DNA of 64,000 nucleotides from an uncultured Planctomycetia bacterium (GCA_964634945.1 CAZWMG010000003.1:37861-101860); one strand, 5' to 3'. Counted from the stretch's first letter, positions 5,340 to 64,000 are shown. Made by a program: numbers and translations. The notes: generated by a model from the sequence alone, not told the origin.

Positions 5340-5340
5340 C

Positions 5341-12761: not shown

Positions 12762-12771
12762 ATACTCTCTA

Positions 12772-16366: not shown

Positions 16367-16478
16367 CGATTTAAGGCCTCCGCCACTTTCACAGCTAAGT
16401 AGAGCTTACCGTAGAAAAATATAATTAAAGCTACCCAGATAAGATATAAAAATTTTAAGATAAGTTTTTTTTTCTCTA

Positions 16479-21063: not shown

Positions 21064-21074
21064 AATATTTCGTA

Positions 21075-23497: not shown

Positions 23498-23504
23498 TCT
23501 CTTT

Positions 23505-27224: not shown

Positions 27225-27256
27225 TATTGAAATTTCCTTTCTTATATCAGACTGCG

Positions 27257-34187: not shown

Positions 34188-34223
34188 TATATTATACTAT
34201 ACATTAAATCTGTTTTTTTGCTT

Positions 34224-35625: not shown

Positions 35626-35675
35626 CATAAGGAATATTGTTGACAAAGACTCAATTTTCGCCTAAAATGTAAACC

Positions 35676-36860: not shown

Positions 36861-36865
36861 AGCGT

Positions 36866-38179
36866 ATGAGTAATTCCATGGTCTTCGCGCAATATTTCAA
36901 ACATAGAATCCTCTCTCCTTTCATCTTTACCTCCACCTTTACCTTTCTCCTATTATGCGCTATAACCTCTGCCCATGCCTCTAACATCGGATCTACAAAG
37001 ATATACTATAATACCGGTAAAAAATCTCAGACATCCGGTATCGAAGAAAGAGACCTTGGGGGATATTTCAGCTACTATAAATATGGCACAAGAATCACAG
37101 CGGAACCTACAGAAGGGTTCTCTTATGGGATAAGATTAGAGGATTACCATAAGGATTTTGACACAAAACGAGACGACTTAGATAATAGAACAAATCTATA
37201 TAGCGCTTATTTTTCCATGCCTATACATAAAACAGACGAAGTCTCTGTTGCGCTTGATACCAATTATAGGCTGCGTACAAAACGCTATAAAAATTCACCT
37301 TCTGATGAGTATGACAATAACAATGTAAGCGCTGGAATCAATATAACCAAAAATAAGAATTATGCCTTAAAAGTATCCGGTGGCATTAAAGACTACGACT
37401 ATATCAAAGATCATGATTCAGATCAGCTCAAAAGCTTCTTTAAGATAGCCCCTAGAATTAAGGCCTTTAAGCAAAGACTGAGTCTTTCCGGATACTACAG
37501 AAGAGATTTAGTAGACCAGACAGACAACAAGAAAGATTATTCCGAGGATTGTGTATCCGTAAGAACCGCTTATGATATAGGCAAACCTATTCTTGATAAG
37601 GTAAGCGGTCATTTTGGATATGGCAGAAATGACACTAGAGATGACAATGAAGACAGGGAAGATAATTTAAGGTATGAGTATCAGCTATGGGATGTTGCTA
37701 TATATTCAAAGCCCTTTAAGAATATAGAGGGCAACATAAGATATGGGCAAAAACATAGAAAATACTTTACATCAATAGATGGTTATGATAACTGGTATAT
37801 AGATAAGAATACAAAAATAAGGCTTCTATCTAAAGACTCTTTTTCAGTTGATATGCTCTTAGGCGGGTTTCATAAAGAAACAAAGTTTTTTCAAAATGAG
37901 GCATTAAGTTATAATAAAAATAGTTTTAGCGCTGGTTTTAGCATGGTAAAAAGAAGCGACTTTTCAATAAAGCCGTCTTTTAAATATACGAGGTATAAGT
38001 ATCCTCCCCTTTCTACAAATAACCAAAAGACCTATGTACTGAAATTTGATACAAAGAAATACATAGGATCTACGGATAAGGCACTTGAAGCGGGCTACTG
38101 GTATGAGTGGAAGAATTATGAATATAGCGCGAACTCAAATCGCTGGAACTTAAATCTCTCTTTTATGCTAAAATTTTAG
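36866..38179 (+). CDS. putative outer-membrane beta-barrel protein with signal peptide
   Basis: 437 aa. N-terminal hydrophobic signal with AHA|S. Rich in Y/N/D/K/G with an alternating-hydrophobic pattern. The C-terminal ...NLNLSFMLKF ends in Phe, the outer-membrane-protein beta-signal. Confidence 0.5.
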   Translation: MSNSMVFAQYFKHRILSPFIFTSTFTFLLLCAITSAHASNIGSTKIYYNTGKKSQTSGIEERDLGGYFSYYKYGTRITAEPTEGFSYGIRLEDYHKDFDTKRDDLDNRTNLYSAYFSMPIHKTDEVSVALDTNYRLRTKRYKNSPSDEYDNNNVSAGINITKNKNYALKVSGGIKDYDYIKDHDSDQLKSFFKIAPRIKAFKQRLSLSGYYRRDLVDQTDNKKDYSEDCVSVRTAYDIGKPILDKVSGHFGYGRNDTRDDNEDREDNLRYEYQLWDVAIYSKPFKNIEGNIRYGQKHRKYFTSIDGYDNWYIDKNTKIRLLSKDSFSVDMLLGGFHKETKFFQNEALSYNKNSFSAGFSMVKRSDFSIKPSFKYTRYKYPPLSTNNQKTYVLKFDTKKYIGSTDKALEAGYWYEWKNYEYSANSNRWNLNLSFMLKF

Positions 38180-49431: not shown

Positions 49432-49456
49432 TATATGTGTAAATACGATTTATTTT

Positions 49457-50338
49457 TTACTTAGCCCTTACTGCTTTGGGCTCATATGAACTATTCAACA
49501 GCTCAAATATGCCCTGTCCCAAATCCACATAATCAGAACCGATTACCCGTTTGGCCATTTTAGGCTTAAAATTATATGGCGTTATCTCATAATGCTCATC
49601 ATCGGAGGCATCATTAAATGTCAGAACTACATCGTTATTCAGCATCTCTTTGACCATTATCAGGAAATCTTTGATCCTGATAGGCTGATAACCTGTTATC
49701 ATAACATATTGATTCTTAAACTCATTCTCAAGCATCTTAACACTTAAGCGTGCCGCGTCATAAACATGGATATATTCCCTGATCTCATTGCCGTCGCCTG
49801 ACCTGACAATCTTCTTATCGACAACAGCTTGCCTCAACATTCTGTTTATCCAGTTGGAATCATCCGCCCTTGGTCCATATAACGAGCCGTAACGTAGAAT
49901 AGTGAAATCAAGATCATACTGTTTGTTATAGCTCTCTATTAGTAACTCACAAGCCTGTTTACTCGCCCTGTAGAATGACCCGGCTTCGCTATAGACGTAG
50001 ACAGTGCTCGCGAATATAAATCTTTTTATCCTGTTCTCGCGACAGGCCTCGAGGATATTCGTTGTACCGATAATATTAGCGTGAATAGTCTCATAAGGCT
50101 GAACTTTCGCCTGATCGATATCAGCTACCCCCGCGAAATGATATACTATATCAGCGCCTATAGTCGCTTTTTTTACTGATTCGATATCCAATATATCGCC
50201 AACTAACATCTCCTGGCTTGCTTGTACATACGGTGAAGGCCTTTTATCATATATGACAACTTCGTGGTTACCTTCTGAAAGATAATCAGCGATATGACTT
50301 CCCAAAAAACCTGATCCGCCAAAAATTACAATCTTCAT
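49457..50338 (-). CDS. NAD-dependent epimerase/dehydratase-family protein
   Basis: 293 aa. VIFGGSGFLGSHI Rossmann motif and YRASK catalytic region. Confidence 0.75.
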   Translation of the reverse strand: MKIVIFGGSGFLGSHIADYLSEGNHEVVIYDKRPSPYVQASQEMLVGDILDIESVKKATIGADIVYHFAGVADIDQAKVQPYETIHANIIGTTNILEACRENRIKRFIFASTVYVYSEAGSFYRASKQACELLIESYNKQYDLDFTILRYGSLYGPRADDSNWINRMLRQAVVDKKIVRSGDGNEIREYIHVYDAARLSVKMLENEFKNQYVMITGYQPIRIKDFLIMVKEMLNNDVVLTFNDASDDEHYEITPYNFKPKMAKRVIGSDYVDLGQGIFELLNSSYEPKAVRAK

Positions 50339-51034
50339 TTAATAATCCTCCTTTAAATAGCTTCTTTCTGTACTCACTATAATGATATCAAGGTTAGATA
50401 GATCTTCAATTACCTTGTGGTCCCCTTCTATCTTAACGCCGTGTGTCGGCCTTCTCTCAATAAAAGCGATGCCTGTCTCCTGCGCGGCTATCTTATCACT
50501 TGACGCGTCCCCGATATAAATAGCCTCGTCTTTTTTATAATTGTTCTTATCTAATATATAATTGATAATTTCAGGCTTACTTCTGGGGGTACCGTAAACC
50601 TCTTTAAAATAACCTTGTAATTTCCTTGCCTGAATAATACCGCATAACTCATCATGAGGGGTTCCTGAAGCGACAAAAAACGCGTACTTATGCATATACT
50701 TACGTAAAAACTCATCCGCGCCCGGAACAAACGGGGCAGCGAGGATCTTTTGCAACACGATACGGGAAAAACTTTCTCCCAATTCGAGTTCTTTTTCCCT
50801 GGAAAATCTCTTTCCCAGGATCTCCTCATATATATGCTGAAACTTTACATAACGCGAGATGCCGGCGTTAAAAACATGGTAATCAGTAATCTCCCGCACC
50901 TTTTCAGGGTAATCGGAAAATAGCTCCTGAAAGGCCTGGGTCTTTATATCCGATGACTCCAGTATGACACCGTCAAAATCAAATATTATAGCTTTTATCA
51001 TCCAGTAAAACCGCTCGTGATGGCGCGCCATCAC
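50339..51034 (-). CDS. HAD-superfamily hydrolase (phosphatase/phosphomutase-like, subfamily IA)
   Basis: 231 aa. IKAIIFDFDGVI (DxD motif I) and a later GDASSD motif IV. The real start is probably the MIKAIIF Met at about 51001. Confidence 0.8.
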   Translation of the reverse strand: MMARHHERFYWMIKAIIFDFDGVILESSDIKTQAFQELFSDYPEKVREITDYHVFNAGISRYVKFQHIYEEILGKRFSREKELELGESFSRIVLQKILAAPFVPGADEFLRKYMHKYAFFVASGTPHDELCGIIQARKLQGYFKEVYGTPRSKPEIINYILDKNNYKKDEAIYIGDASSDKIAAQETGIAFIERRPTHGVKIEGDHKVIEDLSNLDIIIVSTERSYLKEDY

Positions 51035-51581
51035 CCTCTCCTATTTTTAATGGCAAGCATAGAAGCTTATAATAACCCTGCTTGACCTTTTTCAAATAAA
51101 GCCCCTCTACTATAATAACGTCTCTGCTCAATAAAAAGCGATGAACAGGATGAGTCTTATCGCGAGATTCTTCGATAGATGTCTCCTCAGTGCCTACAAG
51201 ATCAATACCATTGGAAACCAATAATTTTGCCTCATCTATCGCAAGGCCCTGAAACGATTTTTTTCTTTTAAATAATATACCTCTTATGCCTTTTGTCTTA
51301 AACCCCTTAAGCAAGGCTGTGTTGGGAAAGTCATCGATCACTGTCACAAAAACATCACATATCAATCGCCTAAGATCTATCTTATCGATTGTCCGCCCTT
51401 TTTTGTATATGTGCCTTGGGGCATCTATATGCGTACCTGTATGGCTACCAAGCGAGATATTTTTAAGGTTACATGAATTCCCTTCTTCTAAAGACTTAAC
51501 GCTCTCTATCACAATATCCGGGTCACTAGGATACTTTTCCATATCAACATTAATCGTCCTGCTTATATCTATATATCTCAT
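50979..51581 (-). CDS. cyclase-family protein (kynurenine formamidase-like fold)
   Basis: 200 aa. LGSHTGTHIDAPRH fits the HxGTHxDAPxH metal-binding signature of the family. Confidence 0.55.
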   Translation of the reverse strand: MRYIDISRTINVDMEKYPSDPDIVIESVKSLEEGNSCNLKNISLGSHTGTHIDAPRHIYKKGRTIDKIDLRRLICDVFVTVIDDFPNTALLKGFKTKGIRGILFKRKKSFQGLAIDEAKLLVSNGIDLVGTEETSIEESRDKTHPVHRFLLSRDVIIVEGLYLKKVKQGYYKLLCLPLKIGEGDGAPSRAVLLDDKSYNI

Positions 51582-51593
51582 ATACTATATAAC

Positions 51594-52514
51594 CTATGCT
51601 ATTTCTGCCAAGCCGGTTAGCAGATTGTTCACTGCCTGGTTTTCCATCTGTACTCTTGCTTCTTTCGCGTAAGAGCCTACATGCGGAGTAAGAATTACAT
51701 TTCTAAACTGCGTTAGTCCTCCGTTGTATGGCTCCTTCGAAAAGACATCACAGGCAGCTCCTGCCAGATTGTTTTTATCCAGCGCAACGCAAAGAGCAGC
51801 CTCATCAACAATGCCACCCCGCGAGCAATTTATTAAAAAAGCGTCTTTTTTCATAAGTGAAAATTCATCCGCGCCTATCATCATAGAATTCTCCTTTGAA
51901 GCCGCGAGATGAAGGCTTACGATGTCGGATTTTTTAAGCAGCTCATTCAATCCAAGATTGGGATAAGATGATATCTTATCCTTGATAAATGGGTCATGAT
52001 ATACTACATCTGAGCCAAAGGCATCGAGAAGCTGCGCTACTTTTTGGCCTATCCTGCCAAAACCTATAATGCCAACGCATTTGCCATATAATAGGTTACC
52101 CATATTTTTGCTCCATAGGCCCGATCGAAGCTCCTGATCCATAAAAGATATTCTACGTATCAGAGAGAGCATTAAGCCGATGGTAAACTCCGCCACGGCC
52201 AGAGTTGGGCCATCCGGAGTATTACGTATTTCTATATTTAATCTTTTAGCCGCGTTTAGATCTATAGTATCGAGTCCTACCCCGCAACGGGAGATTATTT
52301 TAAGCTCGGGCAATTTTAAAAGGACCTCTTCTGAAAAATTTTCTGTGCCCGCGATTATTCCTACGGCATCTTTCGAGAGAGCAATAATCTCAGAAGGCTC
52401 TACCTTACGGTTGTGTGGATTAAGAACCACCTCATGCCCCTTGTCCCTGCAAATATCCAATGGACCGCTATCATATTTAGCGAATGTTGTTGTCAATACC
52501 GTAATTTTACTCAT
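51594..52514 (-). CDS. D-isomer-specific 2-hydroxyacid dehydrogenase (NAD-binding; PGDH/GDH-like)
   Basis: 306 aa. GIIGFGRIGQKVAQLL, a DVVSLH-like segment, and a catalytic His region (ILTPHVGSYAKEA). Confidence 0.85.
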   Translation of the reverse strand: MSKITVLTTTFAKYDSGPLDICRDKGHEVVLNPHNRKVEPSEIIALSKDAVGIIAGTENFSEEVLLKLPELKIISRCGVGLDTIDLNAAKRLNIEIRNTPDGPTLAVAEFTIGLMLSLIRRISFMDQELRSGLWSKNMGNLLYGKCVGIIGFGRIGQKVAQLLDAFGSDVVYHDPFIKDKISSYPNLGLNELLKKSDIVSLHLAASKENSMMIGADEFSLMKKDAFLINCSRGGIVDEAALCVALDKNNLAGAACDVFSKEPYNGGLTQFRNVILTPHVGSYAKEARVQMENQAVNNLLTGLAEIA

Positions 52515-53506
52515 GTCGATTTGTCCTTTTTCTTTTTAGCCAGTACCCTCATATGGGAACTGTGGTTATTTCTTGAGATCCAGGACTGTAATTGATCCTT
52601 ACTCTCTTGGCTACCCTCCTTAACCAGTAGATTCCAGAATCTTCCTAAATCTACGCCCTCGTTTTTCATCATACCTTCAACAATATCCCAGTCAAGCTTA
52701 CCCGGGGTTGAAATATCGATGACCTCAAAGCCCGATCTCTCCAGTAGCAACGAGATAGAATGAGTATTAAAGAAATTCAGGTGATGAGGCGGCGTCAGAC
52801 TCTTTGACCTCTCCCATAATAACTGTATATCAAAGCCCTGACCATTAAGCATTGTCATTAAAAGGTGGCCGCCGGAAGTTAATAGTTTTTTAACGGAATT
52901 TAAGAAACTTAAAGGGTCAAAAAGATGCTCGAATAATTCGAAAGCCGTAAGCATATCAAATTGCTCCCCGTAACCTTTTAATTCCTCCAACATGCAGGAT
53001 TCCACCTTAATTCCCTTTTCAGAACAGATCCTTGACTCCTCTTTAGACGGCTCTATAGCCAAGAGCTTATCCAATGGCCTTAGGGCTGATAATTCCTCTA
53101 GAAAAAGCCCAAAACCCGCTCCGATATCACCTACAGAATTTTTTTTCTTAGCAGACAGGATTGTAGAGGCATATTCCGCTCGCGGACGAAATATCTTCTC
53201 TCTCCTCGCTTCCGCTACCGGCTTGAAAAAGACCTTGCCCCAAAAGAGGGCCGATGGAGAATCAGCGTAAAACCTTTTAAGGTCATCATTACTTGGACGA
53301 GGACTTACATATATAGTATTACATTGTCCGCATAAGACATAATCGAAATTTTTCTTCTTAAACCCGGTTTTTTTGTCGTTGCTCGCGCAAGCGGGGCATA
53401 GTATCTCTGTAAACGATGTGAAATCAAAAAAATCTTTTACATCTTTTTCAACCATCTCTATATACTGATTAAAGGCCTCTCTATTTCTTATATCTTCCTC
53501 TTTCAT
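52511..53506 (-). CDS. class I SAM-dependent methyltransferase with N-terminal Zn-ribbon
   Basis: 331 aa. CPAC...CGQC ribbon, then DIGAGFGLFLEEL motif I. Confidence 0.65.
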   Translation of the reverse strand: MKEEDIRNREAFNQYIEMVEKDVKDFFDFTSFTEILCPACASNDKKTGFKKKNFDYVLCGQCNTIYVSPRPSNDDLKRFYADSPSALFWGKVFFKPVAEARREKIFRPRAEYASTILSAKKKNSVGDIGAGFGLFLEELSALRPLDKLLAIEPSKEESRICSEKGIKVESCMLEELKGYGEQFDMLTAFELFEHLFDPLSFLNSVKKLLTSGGHLLMTMLNGQGFDIQLLWERSKSLTPPHHLNFFNTHSISLLLERSGFEVIDISTPGKLDWDIVEGMMKNEGVDLGRFWNLLVKEGSQESKDQLQSWISRNNHSSHMRVLAKKKKDKST

Positions 53507-54297
53507 TACAAGACCTTTCTTTGGGCTCTTTCAATATACTCTTCTACAAGAGGGCAACTTTTCAGCCTATCTTCTACGTTACGCAGATCCTCTTTTATAT
53601 CAACACTATAAGTATCAGACCCAGATAGCACCATCTTAACCTTAAACCCATGTTCTAATAGACGCAGCATATCTACTGACTCAATTATCTCAAGCGGGGT
53701 AGCGGGCAGGTTATTAAATTTAATGAGAAAATTTCTTCTAAAGGGAATGATACAGACCTGCTTATGCGTAATTAGGTTATTTTTTCCTTTTTTGCGCGAA
53801 GGTATAGGCTCCCTGGAAAAATACATTGCGAAGGAATTCAGATCCGCAACGACCTTTACCTCATTAGGGTCATTCTGCTCTTCCTCTGTCTTTAGCTCTG
53901 CCATGAGATTAACCACCTGTATCTCATCGTCTTTTAGCATGGGTTCTATCGCTTCATCGATCATTTCAGGCCGTAGCATAGGTTCGTCGCCTTGAATCAT
54001 AACTACAACATCGATTCTTCTACCTATATCCCTTTCTATCTTGGCCATCGCCTCCGCTGTTCTATCAGTCGCTCTTTCGTGTGTATCCAATGTCATAATG
54101 GATTTTCCGCCGATCGATTCTACATAATCAGCTATCTCTTTATCACATGTCGCCACATAAACATCGCTTAATGTTTTAGACATCTTGCTTCTCAGTAATA
54201 CGTGTCCAAGCATTGGGATATTTAGAATTTTCGCCAAAGGCTTACCCGGAAAACGGCTTGATCCCATGCGGGCAGGGATTATTCCTACAATATTCAT
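53506..54297 (-). CDS. cytidylyltransferase-family protein (KdsB/NeuA-like, CTP_transf_3)
   Basis: 263 aa. IIPARMGSSRFPGKPLAKI N-terminal motif and IQGDEP metal-binding region. Confidence 0.7.
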   Translation of the reverse strand: MNIVGIIPARMGSSRFPGKPLAKILNIPMLGHVLLRSKMSKTLSDVYVATCDKEIADYVESIGGKSIMTLDTHERATDRTAEAMAKIERDIGRRIDVVVMIQGDEPMLRPEMIDEAIEPMLKDDEIQVVNLMAELKTEEEQNDPNEVKVVADLNSFAMYFSREPIPSRKKGKNNLITHKQVCIIPFRRNFLIKFNNLPATPLEIIESVDMLRLLEHGFKVKMVLSGSDTYSVDIKEDLRNVEDRLKSCPLVEEYIERAQRKVL

Positions 54298-54303
54298 AAG
54301 GCC

Positions 54304-55065
54304 CTAACCTTTCTTTATCATAGATAAATCTTTATACATATCAGTAGCCAGGAAAAGCGTATCTAAACTATAAGCTATAAAATTATACCCCTGCCTTACC
54401 TTCTCTTTAACCTCTTTGAGATCAGGCTGTATAACATGAAAACCTGAAACCGCCTTGAATGACCTTGATACCGCGGTAACCCTTTTTAACGCATCTCTGA
54501 CTTTTGCGTCTTGAAACTCCCCCGGTTTGCCTAGAGAACCGGAAAGATCGTAGGGCCCTATGATAAAACCGTCTACTCCTTTTACCTTTAATATCTTGTC
54601 TATATTTTTAACCGCCTCAATATGTTCGATCTGCACGATAACTATGCTATTTCTATTAGCCCAGTTCTTATATTTTTCGAAACTCATGCCATAACCTTGC
54701 GCCCTAGCGAGCCCAACGCCTCTAATGCCCGCTGGTGGATATTTAGCGGACTTTACAGCACGGATAGCATCGTCTTCGGTATTGACCATAGGCACTATGA
54801 CGCCGTGCGCGCCGGCATCCATAATCCGTTTGATCAGATTAGGATTGTTTTCACCAACCCTTACAAGCGGAACGCATCCAGCCAGGTCTATGACCTGTAT
54901 CAGCCGCTGCGCCTGGTCTAAGCCTATCGCGCTATGCTCCACATCTATTGTAAGCCAATCAAATCCTGCCTTAGCCATGATCTCCGCAATAGCTGTATGA
55001 CCTATGGTAATCCAGGAACCTATTGTAAGCTCCTTAGCTTTGAGCTTCTCTTTAAGCGTTTTCAT
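54304..55065 (-). CDS. HpcH/HpaI-family pyruvate-dependent aldolase
   Basis: 253 aa. GSWITIGHTAIAEIMAKAGFDWLTIDVEHS matches the family consensus. Confidence 0.75.
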   Translation of the reverse strand: MKTLKEKLKAKELTIGSWITIGHTAIAEIMAKAGFDWLTIDVEHSAIGLDQAQRLIQVIDLAGCVPLVRVGENNPNLIKRIMDAGAHGVIVPMVNTEDDAIRAVKSAKYPPAGIRGVGLARAQGYGMSFEKYKNWANRNSIVIVQIEHIEAVKNIDKILKVKGVDGFIIGPYDLSGSLGKPGEFQDAKVRDALKRVTAVSRSFKAVSGFHVIQPDLKEVKEKVRQGYNFIAYSLDTLFLATDMYKDLSMIKKG

Positions 55066-55105
55066 TTAAAGCTCCTATTTTTATTATTCTAGTACCATTT
55101 AGACA

Positions 55106-56305
55106 TTAAATTACAAATAACTCAATATTATCAATTAGGAATCTATTCGATGCTCCTCTGGTATCAATAATAATTTTATCCAATATGACTTCATCTTCGA
55201 CGGCCCATCCTCCAATGGAAGCTGCCTTTTCCACATATGTGCATAAATCTTTGATACTATGCTCAACCCAACCATCAGCATTATCTCTACGCAGAGTAGG
55301 AGGCATGCAAACACCGGTTATTTCCTGTTTGGGATAAATAACCTTAAAATACAAATGCACTCCAGAGGGATTGGAACTTTTTATAGAAACTCTAATTCCT
55401 ATGTTCAGGCCTGTATCATCCAATAGGAACTTTGTATTCTTTGACCAAAAATCATACCCTTCTCCAATATATTCTATATCCAAGATCTCTAAATGATTCT
55501 CTTTGCTCATAGGATCCCGGGCAATAGCGTGGCTGCTGATCTTTGATCGCGCGTTACTCATCAATCTGGATAACCTATAAACAGGGCCCTCAAAATCCTC
55601 AAGAACCACATAGATATTGTCACCCCATATCTCTTGCTTTATCTTGTCTTTGTCATAATAATTTCTACTTACATACGATAAAACATCTACGGGACTCTTG
55701 CCATAATCTAATATCCTTTTTGTAAAAAAGGATCTTGCCTGCTTAAAAAGCTTGTTTGATATGTAGGCATTCCCGATTAAAAAATACAACTCCTTGGCGC
55801 GCAGCGCGATAGGCCGCTCTTTTAAATCAGACGCGACAGATATATACTTTTTAGCGTCCGCAAAATCAGGATAATGGACCTTTAAAAAACCAAGACTTTT
55901 AATCGCGGCGTCAAATCTTGCTGACTCAAGCATCCCTATAGCTATCAATAGGTTATTTTGCCGGCTATCCTTATCATAACTATCCTGCAAATAAAGAGTC
56001 AAAATTTCCGTGTCAACCTTGGCGTAAGATTCTATAGCCAAATTCTCAAAATTAGACTTTGCGTATAGATTACCTAAAGCTAAATTTAACTTTGATACGG
56101 CCTCTTTATTAAGATATTTTTTCGCGTTGTCCTTTGCTAATATCCTGTTATAAAGATAGATACTCTTACCATACTCATGCCTATCTCTATGATAATCAGC
56201 TAGCTTCATTCTAAACCATAAGCTACTGTGAACATGCAGTAGCACAAGAACAACGCAAAAAAAGAACAAGAGAATAAATCTTAGCCTACGCATATTCATG
56301 AGCAC
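55106..56305 (-). CDS. hypothetical membrane-anchored protein (N-terminal TM, helical repeat region, C-terminal beta-rich domain)
   Basis: 399 aa with no recognisable catalytic motif. Confidence 0.35.
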   Translation of the reverse strand: MLMNMRRLRFILLFFFCVVLVLLHVHSSLWFRMKLADYHRDRHEYGKSIYLYNRILAKDNAKKYLNKEAVSKLNLALGNLYAKSNFENLAIESYAKVDTEILTLYLQDSYDKDSRQNNLLIAIGMLESARFDAAIKSLGFLKVHYPDFADAKKYISVASDLKERPIALRAKELYFLIGNAYISNKLFKQARSFFTKRILDYGKSPVDVLSYVSRNYYDKDKIKQEIWGDNIYVVLEDFEGPVYRLSRLMSNARSKISSHAIARDPMSKENHLEILDIEYIGEGYDFWSKNTKFLLDDTGLNIGIRVSIKSSNPSGVHLYFKVIYPKQEITGVCMPPTLRRDNADGWVEHSIKDLCTYVEKAASIGGWAVEDEVILDKIIIDTRGASNRFLIDNIELFVI

Positions 56306-57095
56306 CCTTTAAATGATCCAAAAGATATTTTGCGTAATTTTTAAAGAGATTACCAAAAAATGAAATGTATTTTTTAAATAATACATATTTAGGAACCATG
56401 CCTGAATATTTTCTGATAATAATGTATATTCGTTTAAAAAAAGGAAAGGCCCCTTTTGAAGTATTATTCGCATGCAGTCTATATGTCGCTAGGGGCTCAT
56501 CAACGAAAGCTACCTTATGCTTATAAGCTATTCTGAGCCACAGGTCATAATCCTCTATGGCCATAAGCTTCTTCTCCTCATTAAATAGATACGCATCAGG
56601 AGTTCTTCTGTTTCTTATCATTACCGTCGAACAGGGAAACATATTGTAGGCTAAAAAAAGCTCTTTAAATATATATCCGGACTTGGGGTTAATTGGAGAG
56701 ACCGCTAAGACCTCTCCGCCTTGTTGAACAAAACACTTGGTGTAAACTAAAAAAACATCTCCTTGCCTGTCCATAAGCTCTACCTGCTTTTCAAGTTTTT
56801 GAGCATTCCATAGATCATCGTGATCTAAAAAAGCGATAAACTCACCCACAGAGGCTCTTATCCCTACATTTCTTGATACTGCCGGTCTGCCGCTGTTCTT
56901 ATCGAGCCTGATCAATCTTGTTCTATCATCATCTATACTCTCTATCTTCGCGCATGTATCATCATCTGAACCATCATCAACTATAATCAGCTCCCAATCT
57001 GTAAATGTCTGACTAATAACGGATTTAATCGTATCCTGTATAAAATTCTCACAATTATAGGCTCCTATTACTACTGACACCCGCGGCGCGCTCAC
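56286..57095 (-). CDS. GT2-family glycosyltransferase
   Basis: 269 aa. VSVVIGAYNCENFI...IIVDDGSDDDT...DHDDLW. Confidence 0.8.
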   Translation of the reverse strand: MSAPRVSVVIGAYNCENFIQDTIKSVISQTFTDWELIIVDDGSDDDTCAKIESIDDDRTRLIRLDKNSGRPAVSRNVGIRASVGEFIAFLDHDDLWNAQKLEKQVELMDRQGDVFLVYTKCFVQQGGEVLAVSPINPKSGYIFKELFLAYNMFPCSTVMIRNRRTPDAYLFNEEKKLMAIEDYDLWLRIAYKHKVAFVDEPLATYRLHANNTSKGAFPFFKRIYIIIRKYSGMVPKYVLFKKYISFFGNLFKNYAKYLLDHLKGAHEYA

Positions 57096-58000
57096 TGCTT
57101 GGCCTCCTTCATTCTTATCAGTCCTTCGCGCACACCTAAGGGGGATATTCCTAATTCCCGCTTGATCTTGTCTATCTTATAAGTTGTATTGCGCGGCCTC
57201 GGGGCTATTGCAGGAAAAAATGAACTGTCTACGGGCCTTATTCTGCCTTTGTTGAAACCGAATATTTCCGCGGTAATACACGCAAATTCATACCTCGAGA
57301 TCTCATCTCTGCCTCCGGCATGATATATACCTTTTTTATCCATAGCGATTATTTTCCATATTATATCCGCGCAATCACCCGCAAAGAGTGGATTACAAAA
57401 TATATCATCAACCATATTAGTGGACTTATCACCTTTAAGCATATCGATAAGCCAAGTAACGGGATTTTTTCTTTCCACAGGAAGATTCCAACCATACATC
57501 AATATCGCCCGTACAATGCTGTGGTCTAATCCGCTCTCCTTGATCAAAGATTCTTCCTGCAATTTTAGATTTCCATAATAGCTAATAGGGTTTGCTCTAT
57601 CTTCTTCCGCGTAAGGGGGGCTTGTTCCATCAAAAACGGCATTTGAGGATATATATAACAACCTTGCGGCGACTTTCTTGCAGGCATCTATAATATTAGA
57701 TGTGCCGCCTAGGTTTACAGCCTTTGCCTCTTCTTTATTTTTTTCCACATAATCTACACTAGCAAGGGATGCGGCATGAATTATGTAATCAGGTTTTATA
57801 GTTTCCATGATACCAAAAACTGCCTCTTTATCCCTGGTATCAAGATGATATTTTCCACAATTATTTATAATAGCGTCTTTCTTATCAGCAGGAAAAAAGG
57901 AGTATGACGCGTCTACGCCTTCAGGCACAGACCCTACTAAATAGCTACCCAAAAGTCCCGTGCCGCCTGTTATAAATACCTTCTTATTCTTTTTGTACAT
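57092..58000 (-). CDS. NAD(P)-dependent epimerase/reductase (SDR extended family)
   Basis: 302 aa. VFITGGTGLLGSYL. Confidence 0.65.
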   Translation of the reverse strand: MYKKNKKVFITGGTGLLGSYLVGSVPEGVDASYSFFPADKKDAIINNCGKYHLDTRDKEAVFGIMETIKPDYIIHAASLASVDYVEKNKEEAKAVNLGGTSNIIDACKKVAARLLYISSNAVFDGTSPPYAEEDRANPISYYGNLKLQEESLIKESGLDHSIVRAILMYGWNLPVERKNPVTWLIDMLKGDKSTNMVDDIFCNPLFAGDCADIIWKIIAMDKKGIYHAGGRDEISRYEFACITAEIFGFNKGRIRPVDSSFFPAIAPRPRNTTYKIDKIKRELGISPLGVREGLIRMKEAKQ

Positions 58001-58718
58001 TCATATCCTCTGTCAAATTATTTTGGCCTGACAATAAAGATTCGGCGGATGCAAAATCTATTCTAGTATCAATATCTACTGAACGTATACGTGGCATGAG
58101 ATACCCAAGGGTTTTTTTGCCATAAAAAGTTTTGTGTCTCTTAAGAAAATCCCAATACGCTAAATATATAGCGCCGTTTAGTTTGTAAGCATTTGAAATT
58201 CCCTCCTTATCATGCTCGGCAAATAATGGGCTCATGGAATCCTTAAACAGTCCTACTAACAGCGCCTTGCTTTCTATGTCGATACAGTTCTCTGTATGGC
58301 AAACCGATACGATAGCATCTGCTTTTTTCGAAAAAAGAAGTTCTATGGACCTGTCTATATCCTTAACAAGCCTTAAAGGTGAGGTCGGCTGCAATAAGAT
58401 TAATATATCAAAATTTTCATTATTATTCTCCACCCAATCCATAGCATGCAAAACAAGGCTTATTGACTTTGAGTTATCAGCAGCCAGTTCCTTAGGGCGT
58501 AAAAAGGGTACTTCCGCGCCGCACTCCTTAGCAACTAAAGCTATCTCCTTGTCATCCGTTGAAACAATAACTCTATCAATATAGGTGCTTATTTTTGCCT
58601 GTTCAACTGTCCAGCCAATCAATGGTTTTCCTAGCAGTAATCTTATATTTTTACGAGGCAACCTTTTGCTGCCACCCCTTGCAGGAATTAAGGCTAATAT
58701 TTTTTTATTTTCATACAT
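57984..58718 (-). CDS. CMP-nonulosonic acid synthetase (NeuA/PseF/LegF-like acylneuraminate cytidylyltransferase)
   Basis: 244 aa. ILALIPARGGSKRLPRKNI is the classic NeuA N-terminal motif. Confidence 0.8.
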   Translation of the reverse strand: MYENKKILALIPARGGSKRLPRKNIRLLLGKPLIGWTVEQAKISTYIDRVIVSTDDKEIALVAKECGAEVPFLRPKELAADNSKSISLVLHAMDWVENNNENFDILILLQPTSPLRLVKDIDRSIELLFSKKADAIVSVCHTENCIDIESKALLVGLFKDSMSPLFAEHDKEGISNAYKLNGAIYLAYWDFLKRHKTFYGKKTLGYLMPRIRSVDIDTRIDFASAESLLSGQNNLTEDMNVQKE

Positions 58719-58730
58719 ATTGTCGCCGCA

Positions 58731-59804
58731 TTATTTAAGCATCTGTATTTTTTCCAAGGCCTTTTTGTACTCTTCCCATTGACCGATATCAATATACGAT
58801 TTCTCTGATGCTGGATACACCCCTATATTCTCACCTTTTTTCAAAAGAACCTGCATAAGGTCTGTCATGTCAAAATATTTGTTCTTAGGGATAAAATCCA
58901 AGGCCTTCTTTGATAAGACGTACACACCTGTATTTATGGTAATATCAAACTCCGGTTTTTCCTGAATCCTATCTATCTTGCCGTCTTTTCCAAAATCAAT
59001 AACACCATATGGTATTTTGTGATATTGCATAGAACCCACAACTGTTAATATGTAGTTATTTTCACCATGAAAGTTCACTAGATCACTATAATCTATATCT
59101 ACCACAATATCGCTGTTTGATACTATAAAACTGCTATTAGGAATTGGCGATATAAGCTTAAGTCCTCCTGCAGTACCTAAGAACTCTTCTTCCCAAACGC
59201 ATTTTATATTGTAGGGCCTCTTATTGTTGCTATTTAAATAGCTCTCAATCATTTCACCTTTGTAATTAAGCGTAACAAAAAAATTATCCACACTGTGTTT
59301 TCTGAATTTTTCAATAATTATTTCCAGTATGGGCTTATCGCCGATTGGCATAAGCGGCTTTGGAAATATATTTGTAAATGGGCCCAACCTCTCTCCTTTT
59401 CCTCCGGCCATGATTACTACGGGAATGTCCACCTTTTTAGATAAGGCTTTAGCATCCTCAAATATGTCTGTCCACCATAGGACATTGACAATATTTTTTT
59501 TCTCATCAACAACAGGAATGACTTCCAGCGTCTTTTCCAGCATAAGTTGCTTCGCATCATCTTTAGTATAACTACCATCCATAAAAAATGTTGGGTTACT
59601 ATTAAAACAAGACGCTATTTCTTCCTGCAGATTACCTGTTTTTAGTATCCATCTTCTTATATCGCCATCTGTCAGCGAACCTATTAAAGAACCTTTTTCA
59701 TCACAAACAAACAATATAGCAAATCCAGTCTCTCCGATCTTTTTTAACGCATTTTTTATTGAGGCGCTGGGCAAGATCTTAATCTTATTTACTATATCAT
59801 TCAT
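58731..59804 (-). CDS. CBS-domain sugar-phosphate nucleotidyltransferase (PtmE-like)
   Basis: 357 aa. Tandem CBS-like N-terminus, then VVIMAGGKGERLGPFTNIFPKPLMPIGDKPIL nucleotidyltransferase motif. Confidence 0.65.
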   Translation of the reverse strand: MNDIVNKIKILPSASIKNALKKIGETGFAILFVCDEKGSLIGSLTDGDIRRWILKTGNLQEEIASCFNSNPTFFMDGSYTKDDAKQLMLEKTLEVIPVVDEKKNIVNVLWWTDIFEDAKALSKKVDIPVVIMAGGKGERLGPFTNIFPKPLMPIGDKPILEIIIEKFRKHSVDNFFVTLNYKGEMIESYLNSNNKRPYNIKCVWEEEFLGTAGGLKLISPIPNSSFIVSNSDIVVDIDYSDLVNFHGENNYILTVVGSMQYHKIPYGVIDFGKDGKIDRIQEKPEFDITINTGVYVLSKKALDFIPKNKYFDMTDLMQVLLKKGENIGVYPASEKSYIDIGQWEEYKKALEKIQMLK

Positions 59805-59813
59805 GTTCTTCTC

Positions 59814-60989
59814 CTAAACTTTTGCATATTCCGGTTCTCTTGCTGATCTCTGCCACAATGGGTCTTTCAGCTTCCATTGTCTATTATTATCTTTCTCAAA
59901 GATATCCTTGTTATAGAACTTATCAATAATATTCCAAAACTGACTGCGTGAATAACCTGCAAAATCTACAAAGTCATCTACAGCTTTAGGATCGAGTGCG
60001 TGATCGTGTTTTTTGACTAATTCAATAGCTTCTTGCCTGGTGATCATACCATACCTGATAAATCTAGAGAGATAATCTGTGGCAGAGGCATGCCCGAACT
60101 TCGGATACTTCATCCAGGCATGAACAAGATATGCCCTGGTATCTACTGAATCAAAGTCTTCAACATGGTGCTGTCTTTTCCATTCATGGGTCAAGTCTTT
60201 AAAACCTCTCTTCTTAGCAAAAATATAATTCCTGTAACTATTCCATTTTATAAAATAACTCAAATATATTGGTTCGAGTTTTTCTTGTTCGAGCTCTTTT
60301 TTAGAGGGGTAGATGCAAAGCCCCATATCTTTCATCTCAACGCCATTTCCTAATAACACATCCCAGGAGATATCTGAGGCTACATCATTGTTCACCTGAT
60401 CTTTTGCAGAATACGCCTCACTGTTTTGGGAGCCGCCATATTCGTAGTTTACATTCTCGCCATATATTAAAAAAGGAATCGAAAATTTTATCGCCATGTG
60501 GACAGGGTATGTATAGATTAAACGATCAATGTACCATGTAGGTTTTCCATATTTCTCAAAGGTCTTACGCATAAGTATCTTCTGTGCTCTAATATTAGGT
60601 TTTAGGCTGATAATATCGCAGCCGAACTCTTCGGAGATGTTTTTAATATTATGCTTACCTGCCTCTGGCATAGGAAAATTATCCTCTACTGAGACAAGCA
60701 AGGGGTTCATTCCCAAGCGCTCCTTCATAATATGGACCTGAAAATGGCTATCCTTGCCACCGCTTACCGCTATCATGCAGTCGTAGCCATCCTTTCCTGT
60801 GTTTCTATATTTATCGCAGAGCTTTTCCAGCTCTGTAAAACGCGTATCCCAATCAACCTTATCCTTTATCTCCTCAGCACGGCATCCAGCGCATATCCCT
60901 TCTTCATCAATAACAATTCCTGGGCGCGAGGAGGGCATAACACACTTTTTACAGTATTTCATTACATCTCCTTTCGTATCTAAATACAC
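59814..60989 (-). CDS. N-acetyl sugar amidotransferase (PP-loop ATPase; WbpG/PseA-like, acetamidino-forming)
   Basis: 391 aa. N-terminal Zn-ribbon CKKC...CAGC, then the PP-loop AVSGGKDSHFQ. Confidence 0.65.
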   Translation of the reverse strand: MYLDTKGDVMKYCKKCVMPSSRPGIVIDEEGICAGCRAEEIKDKVDWDTRFTELEKLCDKYRNTGKDGYDCMIAVSGGKDSHFQVHIMKERLGMNPLLVSVEDNFPMPEAGKHNIKNISEEFGCDIISLKPNIRAQKILMRKTFEKYGKPTWYIDRLIYTYPVHMAIKFSIPFLIYGENVNYEYGGSQNSEAYSAKDQVNNDVASDISWDVLLGNGVEMKDMGLCIYPSKKELEQEKLEPIYLSYFIKWNSYRNYIFAKKRGFKDLTHEWKRQHHVEDFDSVDTRAYLVHAWMKYPKFGHASATDYLSRFIRYGMITRQEAIELVKKHDHALDPKAVDDFVDFAGYSRSQFWNIIDKFYNKDIFEKDNNRQWKLKDPLWQRSAREPEYAKV

Positions 60990-62179
60990 TTAGAAAAATT
61001 AATATTCAAGTCAAAAAAACTTTTTTCCATAGAGGCAAAATTTGTCTTACGAACAATATTTACTATTCTTTGAGCGGTCTTTCCATCCCCATAAGGATTT
61101 GCTATTTTTTTACAAGAGTCTTTAAAATTCCTAGATAATGCCTTTTTAAAAGCGCTCTTTATAGATTTAATATCTGCTGCGGAATCGATGACCGAGGCTG
61201 CCCTTATTCGTCCTTTCTGCCTATTGCCTATGTTTACAGTAGGGATACCAAAAGCCGGCACTTCTACTAGGCCGCTTGAAGAATTACCAGCTACAATATC
61301 CATAAACCCAAGAGCGCTCAGATATAACAACTTACCCATGGACATAATAAAAATGGATTGCTTTTTGTTTTTTTTCACATACTTTTCTATGATGCGACTT
61401 ATCGTATGCGAGTACATATCAGGGTTAGGTTTTGTAAATATAATCTTAGAATCCGGAATTCCCTTTAATGCCTTTAGCAAGTTTTTAACGTGGCCTTCCT
61501 GCGAGGACCTTGATTCGGAAGTTGATGGGTTAAATGTTACCATTATATTATTTTTACCTAATTTAAATCCTATTCTCTTCTCAAGAGACTCTTTATCTAA
61601 TAATTTTGTATTACGAATATTGTCCAGTGCTAAAGCGCCTACGCTAAAAATTCTTTTTGGGCTCTCGCCCATTTGTATTATTCTTCTTCTATATGTATCT
61701 GTTGACACGAAATGTAGATACGATAACTTTGTAATCGCGTGCCTTATACCATCATCCAGTGAGCCTTCTGTTACTTCTCCTCCCGCAATATGCGCTATAG
61801 GAATCTTAAGAAGATAACAGGCCATGGCAGCAGCAAATGTCTCGAATCTATCGCCAAGCAAAAAGACCACATTCGGTTTTAGCATTTTCAACGCCTTAGC
61901 GAGTCCTGTTATCCCTAAACTAACGGATTTCGCTATCGACTCCTCTGTATCTCCGCCAAAAAGCGTTCTTACCTTTGAGTTTATGTTAAATCCGTCTCGT
62001 TCTATCTCTCTATAGGTTAAGCCAAAATTACGGGATAGGTGGGCGCCTGTTGCTAATATCTGAAGGGTCAAAAAACCCCTATTAATTTTTATGGATTTAG
62101 CTAGCGGGTAAAACTGGCCCCACTCTGCCCTTGAACCTGTAATAATACATGTCTTCTTTTTTTGGATCTTCATCCTCAT
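60980..62179 (-). CDS. UDP-N-acetylglucosamine 2-epimerase family (NeuC/LegG/PseG-type, likely hydrolysing)
   Basis: 399 aa. ITGSRAEWGQFYPL...GDRFETFAAAMACYLLKIPIAHIAGGE. Confidence 0.75.
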   Translation of the reverse strand: MRMKIQKKKTCIITGSRAEWGQFYPLAKSIKINRGFLTLQILATGAHLSRNFGLTYREIERDGFNINSKVRTLFGGDTEESIAKSVSLGITGLAKALKMLKPNVVFLLGDRFETFAAAMACYLLKIPIAHIAGGEVTEGSLDDGIRHAITKLSYLHFVSTDTYRRRIIQMGESPKRIFSVGALALDNIRNTKLLDKESLEKRIGFKLGKNNIMVTFNPSTSESRSSQEGHVKNLLKALKGIPDSKIIFTKPNPDMYSHTISRIIEKYVKKNKKQSIFIMSMGKLLYLSALGFMDIVAGNSSSGLVEVPAFGIPTVNIGNRQKGRIRAASVIDSAADIKSIKSAFKKALSRNFKDSCKKIANPYGDGKTAQRIVNIVRKTNFASMEKSFFDLNINFSKCI

Positions 62180-62202
62180 TATAATAATGGCCCTCTACAT
62201 TT

Positions 62203-63705
62203 CTAAGTAGGCTGCTTCTGGGTACTCTTTAACCATATATCCTTATACCTAAAAGGGATATTGCGTGGAAGCCCTGAAGCTTCTCTCTTTTCTTTTAGAT
62301 AGTCACGACATCTCTTCTTAAACTTTATTAATTCATCGATAGATAAATTATGGGGCTTAAAATGAGGGTAACCTGAATCAAGATGCAAGTCTGTAATATT
62401 AACATAATCGTCAACGTTATGCGCAAGCAGATTATGGCTTTTGCAATAATCGAATAATTCTGTACCGGGATAGGGTGTCGCAAAGTTTGATGAAAAATTA
62501 TCAAGAGGCAAGGTTGTCATCATATTATATGTTTCTTCGAGGGTTTCACGCGTCTCCTCAGGCATGCCTATAATAAAATAAGCTGTTAAAAAAAGATGTT
62601 TATGCTCTATACAGGCTTCGCAAGCTTCGTATATCTTAGCTGTAGGGAGGTTCTTCTTCATTACTTTATTTCTTATATACTCGGAACCGCTTTCAATGGC
62701 AATATTTATCCTGACCATGCCTGCGTTGACCAAAGCACTTACAACATCTTTATCCAATCTATTTATCGCGATCCCATTCGGAGCATCAAATTGAATTTCC
62801 ATCTTTCGTTTCACAATTCCTTCACATATTTCTATAATTCGCCTCTTGTCAAATGTAACATTATCATCCATGAATTCAAAGTAGCGAACATTGTAATCGT
62901 TATACAATTTCTCCATCTCTTCTAAGACGTTACCTGAGGATCTGTGCCTAAACCTTAAACCGTGCACTAACCACATACTGCAGAAAGTACAGCGTTGCGG
63001 ACAACTTCTACTTGAAATAACAGTAAAAGGCTGTCCAACCGCTATGCCTTTTGGGGAATACCAGCCGGAAGTATCCATGTTCTTATATGCTCCCATATCC
63101 AGTATGCTATAATCTATAGAAGGCAACTCATCCAGATTATCGATAAATTTAGTTTTTGGATTCAGGATTACCCTGCCTTTTTTTCTAAATGCGATACCAT
63201 CGATGAGCTCAAAGTCGTTGTTATCATTAACCAGTGACGTAATCAATTCCAGAAATGTAAACTCGCCTTCGCCTATAATTACATAATCAATGCAATTGTA
63301 TTTTTCTAAAATATCTTTTGAAAATACAGTAGGATGCATCCCGCCTATCACAATAGGTATTTCGGGGAAATTTTTCTTTATATTATTCGCTATTATTTTG
63401 AGATTTTGAAATGCCCCTGAAAATGTGCACCCCAAGCCTATTATGTTGGGCCTGTAATCATCAATAGCGGATAAGAGCTGGTTATTAAAATAATCATTCA
63501 ACTCATCCGCACTTGGGCTCTCCGTATGATTATAGTAGTGATTATTGACATCAATAAGCTTGACATCTATATCGTTCTTCTTTAGCATTGTACCCAAAGA
63601 TAGAAGCCCAAGAGGGAAAAAGTTATCCGGATTAAACTCATTTCTTGATGTAGGCAAATTGAAAAGCATTACCTTTGTCTCTGCGTTTAACATTTTGCCT
63701 CCCAT
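62203..63705 (-). CDS. B12-binding domain radical SAM protein, paralogue 4
   Basis: 500 aa. B12-binding N-terminus (KVMLFNLP...LGLLSLGTML), CPQRCTFCS triad. Confidence 0.8.
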   Translation of the reverse strand: MGGKMLNAETKVMLFNLPTSRNEFNPDNFFPLGLLSLGTMLKKNDIDVKLIDVNNHYYNHTESPSADELNDYFNNQLLSAIDDYRPNIIGLGCTFSGAFQNLKIIANNIKKNFPEIPIVIGGMHPTVFSKDILEKYNCIDYVIIGEGEFTFLELITSLVNDNNDFELIDGIAFRKKGRVILNPKTKFIDNLDELPSIDYSILDMGAYKNMDTSGWYSPKGIAVGQPFTVISSRSCPQRCTFCSMWLVHGLRFRHRSSGNVLEEMEKLYNDYNVRYFEFMDDNVTFDKRRIIEICEGIVKRKMEIQFDAPNGIAINRLDKDVVSALVNAGMVRINIAIESGSEYIRNKVMKKNLPTAKIYEACEACIEHKHLFLTAYFIIGMPEETRETLEETYNMMTTLPLDNFSSNFATPYPGTELFDYCKSHNLLAHNVDDYVNITDLHLDSGYPHFKPHNLSIDELIKFKKRCRDYLKEKREASGLPRNIPFRYKDIWLKSTQKQPT

Positions 63706-64000
63706 CTATTGCTCGTAATTTTACGCGCTAAGTCAACAACGCTCTGATTTTCTTTAACATCAGCGAATACTGTTGTCCCAATGCCGATGACCGTATTTCT
63801 GCCTATGGTAATACCTTGACTTAGAATAGCTCCGGAACCTATAATACAGCTATCCTTAACAATGCAATTACCATTGACTGTTGCTGAAGGCATAATCGAC
63901 GCATAATCTCCGATATCTGTATCATGGCCTAACATAACGTTATAAAGCAACGAAACGCATTTACCTAATCGCACGTTAAAACTGATATTTACACTCGGGT
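63687..64000 (-). CDS. hexapeptide-repeat (left-handed beta-helix) sugar N-acetyltransferase, NeuD/PglD/LegH-like; N-terminus beyond the window
   Basis: Imperfect hexapeptide repeats (IGDYASIMPSATVNGNCIVKDSCIIGSGAILSQGITIGRNTVIGIGTTV). The reading frame stays open upstream of the listed GTG to the window edge, so the gene is 5'-truncated by the window. Confidence 0.6.
   Translation of the reverse strand, partial: PSVNISFNVRLGKCVSLLYNVMLGHDTDIGDYASIMPSATVNGNCIVKDSCIIGSGAILSQGITIGRNTVIGIGTTVFADVKENQSVVDLARKITSNRWEAKC

Follow-up and report, generated by a model that had tools for sequence, protein, structure and literature searches.

The subject of this analysis is a 64,000-nucleotide stretch of DNA (the window) from an uncultured Planctomycetia bacterium (GCA_964634945.1 CAZWMG010000003.1:37861-101860), and in particular a B12-binding radical S-adenosylmethionine (SAM) enzyme, here called rSAM, that is encoded in a gene cluster at its end (positions 56286 to 64000). 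We regard it as probable (about 0.6) that this region forms the 3' half of a single long operon on the minus strand, for a cytidine monophosphate (CMP)-activated, heavily tailored legionaminic acid (Leg) of a surface glycan, with rSAM as a tailoring enzyme for which C-methylation is the preferred reaction. The locus is a variant of the known Leg pathway, and rSAM belongs to an uncharacterized clade of B12-binding radical SAM enzymes tied to nonulosonic acid genes; it sits in a conserved operon core, and its gene stands beside those for NeuB or a CMP-transferase in no fewer than 17 independent lineages. Nonulosonic acids (sialic, legionaminic, and pseudaminic acids) are carried on bacterial and archaeal surfaces, where they take part in phage, immune, and cell-cell recognition, and their known diversity lies in stereochemistry and in N- and O-substituents. 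A change to the carbon skeleton, if that is what rSAM brings about, would account for unassigned higher-carbon ulosonic acids found by mass spectrometry; if rSAM only adds one more tailoring reaction, the locus still offers a compact and complete template for an unusual Leg derivative.

The probable legionaminic acid operon

Genes were called from long open reading frames (ORFs) and from profile searches (Pfam and NCBIfam/TIGRFAM) with curated cutoffs. Every long ORF from 38.2 kb to the window end lies on the minus strand, and each gene that the initial annotation had placed between 56286 and 64000 was recovered there by the profile searches. The genes of the locus within the window are as follows.

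63687..64000, minus strand: 3' part (C-terminal 104 codons, seen in translation) of a legH-like NeuD/PglD-family hexapeptide N-acetyltransferase gene
62203..63693 (the ORF permits a start at 63705), minus strand: rSAM, 496 amino acids (PF02310, 67 bits, cutoff 32.1; PF04055, 72 bits)
60980..62179, minus strand: legG/neuC-type hydrolyzing nucleoside diphosphate (NDP)-sugar 2-epimerase (NeuC_NnaA TIGR03568, 438.7 bits, cutoff 235.9; Epimerase_2, 276 bits)
59814..60989, minus strand: WbuX/PseA/PtmG-family N-acetyl sugar amidotransferase of the PP-loop type (TIGR03573, 374.5 bits, cutoff 203.2)
58731..59804, minus strand: PtmE-like sugar-1-phosphate nucleotidyltransferase with an N-terminal CBS domain (CBS, 44 bits; NTP_transferase, 130 bits)
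57984..58718, minus strand: legF/neuA-type CMP-nonulosonate synthetase (CTP_transf_3, 97 bits, cutoff 22.6)
57092..58000, minus strand: RmlD-like NAD(P)-dependent reductase or epimerase (RmlD_sub_bind, 188 bits; TIGR01214, 182.8 bits, below the cutoff of 224)
56286..57095, minus strand: family-2 glycosyltransferase, GT2 (Glycos_transf_2, 112 bits)

The RmlD-like reductase and GT2 genes lie within the range covered by the initial annotation and were left unnamed in it; they overlap by 4 nucleotides, and the RmlD-like gene overlaps legF by 17 nucleotides. The LegF-like protein reaches 163.6 bits on the PseF model (cutoff, 205.7) and is thus no PseF equivalog, and no Leg-specific curated model matched it. 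The amidotransferase, which appears in a public record as a 382-amino-acid protein starting at 60962, carries the PP-loop motif SGGKDS and an N-terminal CxxC...CxxC arrangement.

Exact look-up of the 500-amino-acid form of the rSAM ORF in public records gave no match, and the 496-amino-acid form, which begins at the second methionine, is found on 14 public contigs. A public contig (L001) is 100% identical to window positions 52203 to 64000 over 11,798 nucleotides, so that L001:1-9693 represents the 9.7 kb of sequence beyond position 64000. The full legH-like gene (L001:9348-10007) starts about 346 nucleotides past the window end and encodes 219 amino acids with PglD_N and Hexapep domains (TIGR03570 NeuD_NnaD, 139.6 bits versus a cutoff of 160.8). 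The following genes precede it on L001.

Upstream of legB: 619-amino-acid protein with no function assigned (labelled PF27878, PFTS_polysacc)
L001:563-1561, about 8.1 to 9.1 kb past the window end: LegB, NAD-dependent 4,6-dehydratase (TIGR04180, 498 bits, cutoff 475)
After legB: LegC-family aminotransferase (TIGR04181, 418.6 bits versus a cutoff of 420; PseC model, 246.6 bits)
Between legC and neuB: SAM methyltransferase, 379 amino acids
L001:3843-4847: NeuB/LegI phosphoenolpyruvate (PEP)-dependent synthase with NeuB and SAF domains (TIGR03569 NeuB_NnaB, 507 bits, cutoff 400; PseI, 301 bits, below the cutoff of 340)
After neuB: acyl carrier protein (ACP), 90 amino acids (PP-binding, 25.9 bits)
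After the ACP gene: acyl-AMP ligase
After the ligase gene: IMPase/HisN-like phosphatase
After the phosphatase gene: PdxA-family dehydrogenase (333.7 bits, cutoff 290)
Before the legH-like gene: FabG-like short-chain dehydrogenase/reductase (SDR), 253 amino acids

The resulting gene order is LegB, LegC, methyltransferase, NeuB/LegI, ACP, acyl-AMP ligase, IMPase-like, PdxA-like, SDR, LegH-like, rSAM, LegG/NeuC, WbuX, PtmE-like, LegF-like, RmlD-like, and GT2, with the first ten genes just past the window end. Neighboring genes overlap or are separated by at most 40 nucleotides in the window part and at most 78 nucleotides in the upstream part, and no terminator-like site was found in any minus-strand intergenic gap (9 sites found overall versus 7.8 expected from shuffles). 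The block from ACP to SDR (L001:4844-9331) is inserted between neuB and legH; an IMPase and PdxA pair was also observed in another locus, L019.

The initial annotation had stated that this half of the window holds no PEP-dependent synthase. Within 38 to 64 kb there is indeed no NeuB; the operon does have one, about 5.2 kb past position 64000, and the synthase seemed absent because the window ends inside the operon. The hints that a distant NeuB gene (5341) or an HpcH/HpaI aldolase gene (54304-55065) might serve the pathway fell away, although both genes are present: a dedicated NeuB is encoded in the operon, and HpcH belongs to a conserved module of its own with a KdsB-like gene. On these two grounds the aldolase was ruled out as a substitute synthase.

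The profile matches indicate that the module is a complete Campylobacter-type legionaminic acid operon and not a pseudaminic acid operon. LegG, PtmE-like, and LegF-like proteins are encoded in the window, and the LegB, LegC-family, and NeuB/LegI genes, which the initial annotation had proposed to look for past position 64000, lie just upstream on L001, so that its Campylobacter-style legionaminic logic is borne out. Its term "pseudaminic-like" is not: the PseB (77 bits), PseC (247 bits), PseI (301 bits), and PseF (164 bits) models all score below their cutoffs, neither PseG nor PseH was seen in the operon, and an epimerase of the NeuC type is there instead, which excludes a pseudaminic acid pathway.

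With LegB and the CBS-nucleotidyltransferase as markers, the route is, by analogy, probably based on guanosine diphosphate (GDP)-N-acetylglucosamine; this assignment follows the established Campylobacter pathway, of which summaries are given in PMC4481668 and in the SugarBase preprint (10.64898/2026.04.20.719630). LegB, LegC, and LegH would produce GDP-2,4-diacetamido-2,4,6-trideoxy-hexose, from which LegG would release the 2-epimerized free sugar; LegI would condense this sugar with PEP, and LegF would add CMP. The 253-amino-acid SDR has the size of PtmA and could be its counterpart. The PdxA-family protein was rejected as PtmF, which is listed as a 326-amino-acid oxidoreductase with no sign of PdxA family membership (PMC4481668). 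The RmlD-like reductase could alter a stereocenter of the product, which in the Campylobacter-type pathway has the D-glycero-D-galacto configuration.

The WbuX family takes in both PseA and PtmG, and the WbuX/PtmG-type enzyme encoded here would turn one N-acetyl group into an acetamidino group. The initial annotation had argued for such a group from the PP-loop amidotransferase, which was fair, as the protein passes the curated cutoff of its family. The methyltransferase encoded between legC and neuB, the place of ptmH in C. jejuni, may N-methylate the acetamidino group, and an acetamidino derivative, possibly N-methylated, can reasonably be inferred from this analogy. According to the SugarBase preprint, PtmG (Cj1324) makes the acetimidoylamino group, and the ptmG and ptmH genes of C. 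jejuni are both located in the interval from legC to neuB (10.64898/2026.04.20.719630).

In comparison with the Leg/ptm loci of C. jejuni and C. coli, the same enzyme families are present for every core step, including the CBS-nucleotidyltransferase, together with the PtmG-type amidotransferase and the FabG-like SDR. The SAM methyltransferase occupies the position of ptmH, whereas the amidotransferase gene follows neuC here and ptmG precedes neuB in C. jejuni. The operon differs in its additional genes for rSAM, ACP, acyl-AMP ligase, IMPase-like phosphatase, PdxA-family dehydrogenase, and RmlD-like reductase, and in that no PtmF-type oxidoreductase or PgmL was seen. The ptm locus of Campylobacter is a flagellar locus, whereas the present operon is part of a glycan island that spans at least 90 kb and also contains Wzy-like, Wzy_C (O-antigen-ligase-type), and GT-C genes, and its host is uncultured and presumably anaerobic, unlike Campylobacter. 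The CMP-legionaminic acid pathway of Campylobacter was reportedly described by Schoenhofen et al. in 2009.

The radical SAM enzyme and its orthologues

As the initial annotation had noted, the rSAM gene is embedded between the acetyltransferase and epimerase genes: its start overlaps the stop of the acetyltransferase gene by 7 nucleotides, its stop lies 23 nucleotides from the start of neuC, and no terminator-like site intervenes. That annotation would have given up the link between rSAM and the pathway had legBCI been found immediately upstream and rSAM proved to belong to another operon, for example behind a terminator. The legBCI genes do lie immediately upstream, but rSAM, with its overlap and no terminator, is not separable from them. 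We infer that rSAM is a tailoring enzyme of the pathway and not a passenger.

The three cysteines of the CxxxCxxC motif (C231, C235, and C238) are invariant in 27 orthologues. Its B12-binding and radical SAM domains both score above their Pfam cutoffs, and the best full-length hidden Markov model matches of rSAM are cobalamin enzymes, namely the Sden_1168 P-methyltransferase (191 bits), BchE (190 bits), HpnJ (152 bits), and ApyD (149 bits). The AlphaFold2 model (predicted local distance difference test score, 91.4) takes a class B radical SAM fold, and Foldseek matched it to TsrM, MgmA, AprD4, OxsB, CysS, and TokK with TM-scores of 0.6 to 0.77; for the class B methyltransferases TsrM, TokK, CysS, and MgmA, the E values were 1e-19 to 1e-23 and the TM-scores about 0.6 to 0.7. 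This fold search could not tell a methylase from a dehydratase. The predicted fold and the sequence together place rSAM among the class B radical SAM enzymes, an assignment that does not fix its chemistry.

Protein searches returned more than 100 orthologues at 44 to 72% identity, nearly all of them metagenomic, from sources that include Atribacterota, Falkowbacteria, Bacteroidales, Nitrospirae, and archaeal metagenome-assembled genomes; the best match of the genome scan, among the matches listed, is 57% identical. For a survey of gene context, 163 loci from the genome scan (matches listed) and a metagenome scan were pooled, and their ORFs were called and clustered all-against-all. Dereplication of the rSAMs at 85% identity gave 33 lineages at 45% or higher identity to the window rSAM and 88 below 45%, and neighbors were counted within 8 kb. 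A NeuB or CTP_transf_3 gene accompanies rSAM in 17 of the 33 close lineages versus 8 of the 88 distant ones (odds ratio 10.6, Fisher p = 1.6e-6), and in 14 of the 22 close lineages with at least 5 kb of flank. WbuX (5/33 versus 0/88) and NeuC (4/33 versus 0/88) neighbors were confined to the close lineages. In the neighbor-joining tree, a clade of 32 sequences around the window rSAM holds 17 that are linked to nonulosonic acid genes, and the next 42 sequences add four.

The cluster most similar in synteny is L088, in which a 622-amino-acid protein is followed by LegB, LegC, a PglD-NeuB fusion, a methyltransferase, rSAM, an ATP-grasp protein, a HAD protein, NeuC, PIG-L, DUF4915, a PtmE-like protein, HisF/HisH-like proteins, a WbuX-like protein, and a CMP-transferase. 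Identities to the window operon are 67% for LegB, 60% for LegC, 61% for NeuB, 62% for the PtmE-like nucleotidyltransferase, 52% for LegF, and 59% for rSAM, which again lies between neuB and neuC; the ACP/ligase/IMPase/PdxA/SDR block is absent. A similar placement was observed in L116 (PglD, NeuB, a paralogue, rSAM, NeuC, a nucleotidyltransferase, and a CMP-transferase). In L087, the locus of the 72% identical orthologue, rSAM is followed by a CMP-transferase, a second B12-binding radical SAM enzyme, and a NeuB fusion, and in L089 (60%) it stands among NeuB, IMPase, a GHMP kinase, SDRs, SIS_2, a transaldolase-like protein, and a CMP-transferase. Relatives at 38 to 44% identity lie beside NDP-hexose dehydratase, aminotransferase, and nucleotidyltransferase genes, without NeuB.

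L089 is one of several contexts without LegB-type genes (the others being L092, L095, L103, and L126), whose genes include SIS_2 (GmhA-like), transaldolase/FSA-like, GHMP kinase, IMPase, KdsC-like HAD phosphatase, class-III aminotransferase, NeuB, and CMP-transferase genes. Condensation of PEP with a heptose would by itself yield a ten-carbon ulosonic acid.

Proposed reaction of the radical SAM enzyme

In our preferred reading, rSAM would carry out a cobalamin-dependent radical C-methylation of an unactivated carbon, either of an NDP-hexose intermediate or of the nonulosonic acid itself, and the product would be a ten-carbon, C-methylated Leg derivative. GenK and GenD1 are cobalamin-dependent radical SAM methyltransferases that act on aminosugars, and by analogy with GenK, which methylates C6' of its aminosugar, we favor C-methylation, either of the sugar skeleton or of the NDP-hexose from which it is made. 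Four considerations lead to this preference: most characterized class B radical SAM enzymes are methylases; rSAM, unlike the acyl-building genes, has stayed in the core shared by two divergent Leg clusters; its distant relatives occur together with NDP-aminosugar genes, which fits action at the level of the sugar nucleotide; and the Leg pathway intermediates offer no vicinal diol for chemistry of the AprD4 type. Like the class B methyltransferases GenK, GenD1, TsrM, TokK, CysS, and MgmA, rSAM combines an N-terminal Rossmann B12-binding domain with a radical SAM TIM barrel bearing CxxxCxxC, and it shares with the aminosugar enzymes a place in a sugar-modification gene cluster; it differs in being only 15 to 19% identical to any solved member.

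Several points weigh against this reading of the operon and of rSAM. No curated NCBIfam equivalog is reached by rSAM (best, 191 bits versus a cutoff of 575), and the solved structure nearest to it in both sequence and TM-score is that of AprD4, a diol dehydratase that does not methylate and is not known to use cobalamin. For every member of the rSAM clade, the reaction is a prediction from sequence and context. About half of the orthologues linked to nonulosonic acid genes are in non-Leg clusters (SIS_2, transaldolase-like, KdsC-like, NeuB, and CMP-transferase), so that the substrate feature common to all is unclear. Among the pathway proteins, LegC and the LegH-like protein score just below their curated cutoffs; no PgmL or PtmF homologue was found in the locus, and activation with GDP rather than uridine diphosphate is a prediction. 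The HisH/HisF-like partners of WbuX (WbuY/WbuZ type) are absent from the window and from L001; they adjoin WbuX in L088 (His_biosynth and GATase), L010, and L111. The partners are no strict requirement, as C. jejuni PtmG is not known to have an adjacent HisH/HisF-like pair.

The similarity to AprD4 also opens the way to a different radical reaction on the sugar, which we consider unlikely: an AprD4-like dehydration followed by reduction by the SDR or the RmlD-like reductase (a net deoxygenation), an epimerization, or a rearrangement. AprD4 (PDB 6fd2), which acts on an aminosugar in the C3' deoxygenation of apramycin, ranks first among PDB entries both in the sequence search (106 bits) and in TM-score (0.71/0.77). 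AprD4 is paired with the NAD(P)H reductase AprD3, and SDR genes likewise often flank the rSAM orthologues: a classical SDR lies within 8 kb in 7 of the 33 close lineages versus 8 of the 88 distant ones, often directly upstream (L089, L091, L103, and L126), and the window operon itself has an SDR gene one gene upstream of rSAM and the RmlD-like gene downstream. The presence of orthologues in non-Leg NeuB clusters would also suit dehydration plus reduction or epimerization. On the other hand, the match to AprD4 is limited to the radical SAM core, and the AprD4 model NF033070 gives 84.9 bits, far under its cutoff of 500, whereas cobalamin enzymes are matched over the full length with 190 bits. 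On PF02310 the N-terminal domain reaches 67 bits, and the diol on which an AprD4-type reaction depends is missing from the Leg intermediates.

C-methylation could alternatively be directed at an acyl group and not at the sugar. In this very unlikely arrangement, the ACP, the acyl-AMP ligase, PdxA, and the SDR would produce an ACP-tethered acyl group, rSAM would methylate it, and the hexapeptide acyltransferase would transfer it. The genes for ACP, ligase, FabG-like SDR, and acyltransferase immediately precede that of rSAM in the operon, translation of rSAM is coupled to that of the acyltransferase, and CysS and TokK, according to their structure descriptions, use pantetheinyl-linked substrates. 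The ACP/ligase block, however, is missing from nearly all orthologue contexts, the ligase being found only in L102, and it is absent from L088, the closest syntenic Leg cluster, which keeps rSAM.

Least probable of all is that rSAM, as one of many B12-binding radical SAM enzymes of the island, serves another glycan and lies in the Leg operon by chance, as might be suggested by three other such genes in the window (9438, 14247, and 21075) and two SPASM radical SAM genes, beside GT2 and GT-C modules, and by relatives below 45% identity in many non-nonulosonic glycan clusters, since the four paralogues are only 27 to 32% identical to each other, rSAM has an orthologue clade of its own enriched for NeuB and CMP-transferase neighbors, its place between neuB/legH and neuC is kept in L088 and L116, and it overlaps the upstream gene with no terminator. 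Paralogues 2 to 4 of the window had no close orthologues among the fetched loci.

C-methylation of the Leg skeleton, if correct, would have a possible counterpart in known products. In the SugarBase preprint, CMP-activated C10 higher-carbon ulosonic acids are described by mass spectrometry in Magnetospirillum gryphiswaldense, with earlier work by Kleikamp et al. cited there, and no biosynthetic genes are proposed for them in the text consulted (10.64898/2026.04.20.719630). A CMP-activated Leg- or pseudaminic acid-like acid with one additional backbone carbon, as described there, is the product expected of a C-methylating rSAM in a Leg operon. We treat this correspondence as a lead only; no Magnetospirillum protein is among the few with a named source in the 120 best rSAM homologues, most of which have no source name. 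A bolder proposal, which we make tentatively and with the odds against it, is that the rSAM clade is the first enzyme family to alter the carbon skeleton of nonulosonic acids. It would comprise C-methyltransferases acting, for example, at the 6-deoxy methyl group of the NDP-hexose (C9 of Leg), and would give rise to CMP-activated ten-carbon ulosonic acids like those seen by mass spectrometry; such acids would then be widely distributed among uncultured anaerobes, both archaea and candidate-phyla bacteria among them. In the literature searched, no report was found that joins radical SAM or cobalamin enzymes with nonulosonic, legionaminic, pseudaminic, or sialic acid or O-antigen pathways.

The HpcH module and the remainder of the glycan island

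The HpcH module lies at window positions 47698 to 55065 on the minus strand. It begins with genes for the HpcH/HpaI aldolase and the KdsB-like CMP-transferase (PRK13368, 308 bits, cutoff 255), which are followed by those for a methyltransferase, a 2-hydroxyacid dehydrogenase, a cyclase/arylformamidase-like protein, a HAD hydrolase, an epimerase, and a 577-amino-acid protein. The HpcH, KdsB-like, and epimerase genes recur at 56 to 67% identity in both other genomes examined (L172 and L173), and the 2-hydroxyacid dehydrogenase (53%) and HAD hydrolase (44%) recur in L173. A B12-binding radical SAM gene lies between the HpcH and KdsB-like genes in L173 and near the module in L172. Homologues of the KdsB-like protein are about 67 to 75% identical, and those with named sources are from Nitrospirota, Thermodesulfobacteriota, Ignavibacteria, and Syntrophomonadaceae. 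These protein families suggest a route by way of a pyruvate aldolase to a CMP-activated keto-deoxy sugar acid; no description of an HpcH/KdsB-like module was found in the literature. The initial annotation had counted three CMP-type cytidylyltransferases in the window, and CTP_transf_3 genes are indeed present at 3502, 53506, and 57984.

The window as a whole is part of one glycan island that runs past both of its ends. A second, noncanonical NeuB module occupies positions 854 to 10925 on the minus strand. It encodes a DegT aminotransferase (PseC model, below the cutoff), an MbnB/AP_endonuc_2-like TIM barrel protein, an SDR, a 278-amino-acid NeuB without SAF, a GNAT protein, a CTP_transf_3 protein, an aldo-keto reductase, and a 577-amino-acid Epimerase_2/Glyphos_transf-like protein, and ahead of these genes lie a small HTH_17 gene (about 9107 to 9349) and the second B12-binding radical SAM gene (9438 to 10925), whose product is 27% identical to the rSAM of the Leg operon. 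Positions 10950 to 29348 on the minus strand contain a repeating set of a 237- to 240-amino-acid GT2 resembling polyprenyl-phosphate sugar synthases, a PMT_2 GT-C transferase, and a B12-binding radical SAM enzyme. In total, there are five PMT_2 and four small GT2 genes, a YfhO gene, the B12-binding radical SAM genes at 14247 and 21075, a SPASM radical SAM gene at 22475, and an amine oxidase gene at 25210. This repetition suggests several periplasmic side-branch decorations, some of them modified by radical chemistry.

A carbamoyltransferase gene (609 amino acids) adjoins an APS kinase gene at 32358 to 34772 on the minus strand, a hint of carbamoylated and sulfated glycan residues. The only plus-strand block of the window (34903 to 38179) encodes a GT2, an AAA_14/DUF4143 ATPase, and a 437-amino-acid protein, with a positive GC skew at 36 to 38 kb, and may have been inserted, dividing the island into two transcription units. 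On the other side, the island continues in the 10 kb past the window start (L170:11731-21734) with genes for Methyltransf_21, a Polysacc_synt_3 flippase, 3-hydroxy-3-methylglutaryl coenzyme A reductase, a GHMP kinase, NTP_transf_3, succinyl-CoA-ligase-like subunits, and a cytidine diphosphate (CDP)-alcohol phosphatidyltransferase, an unusual set that might provide a CDP-activated, mevalonate-derived or polyol-phosphate substituent.

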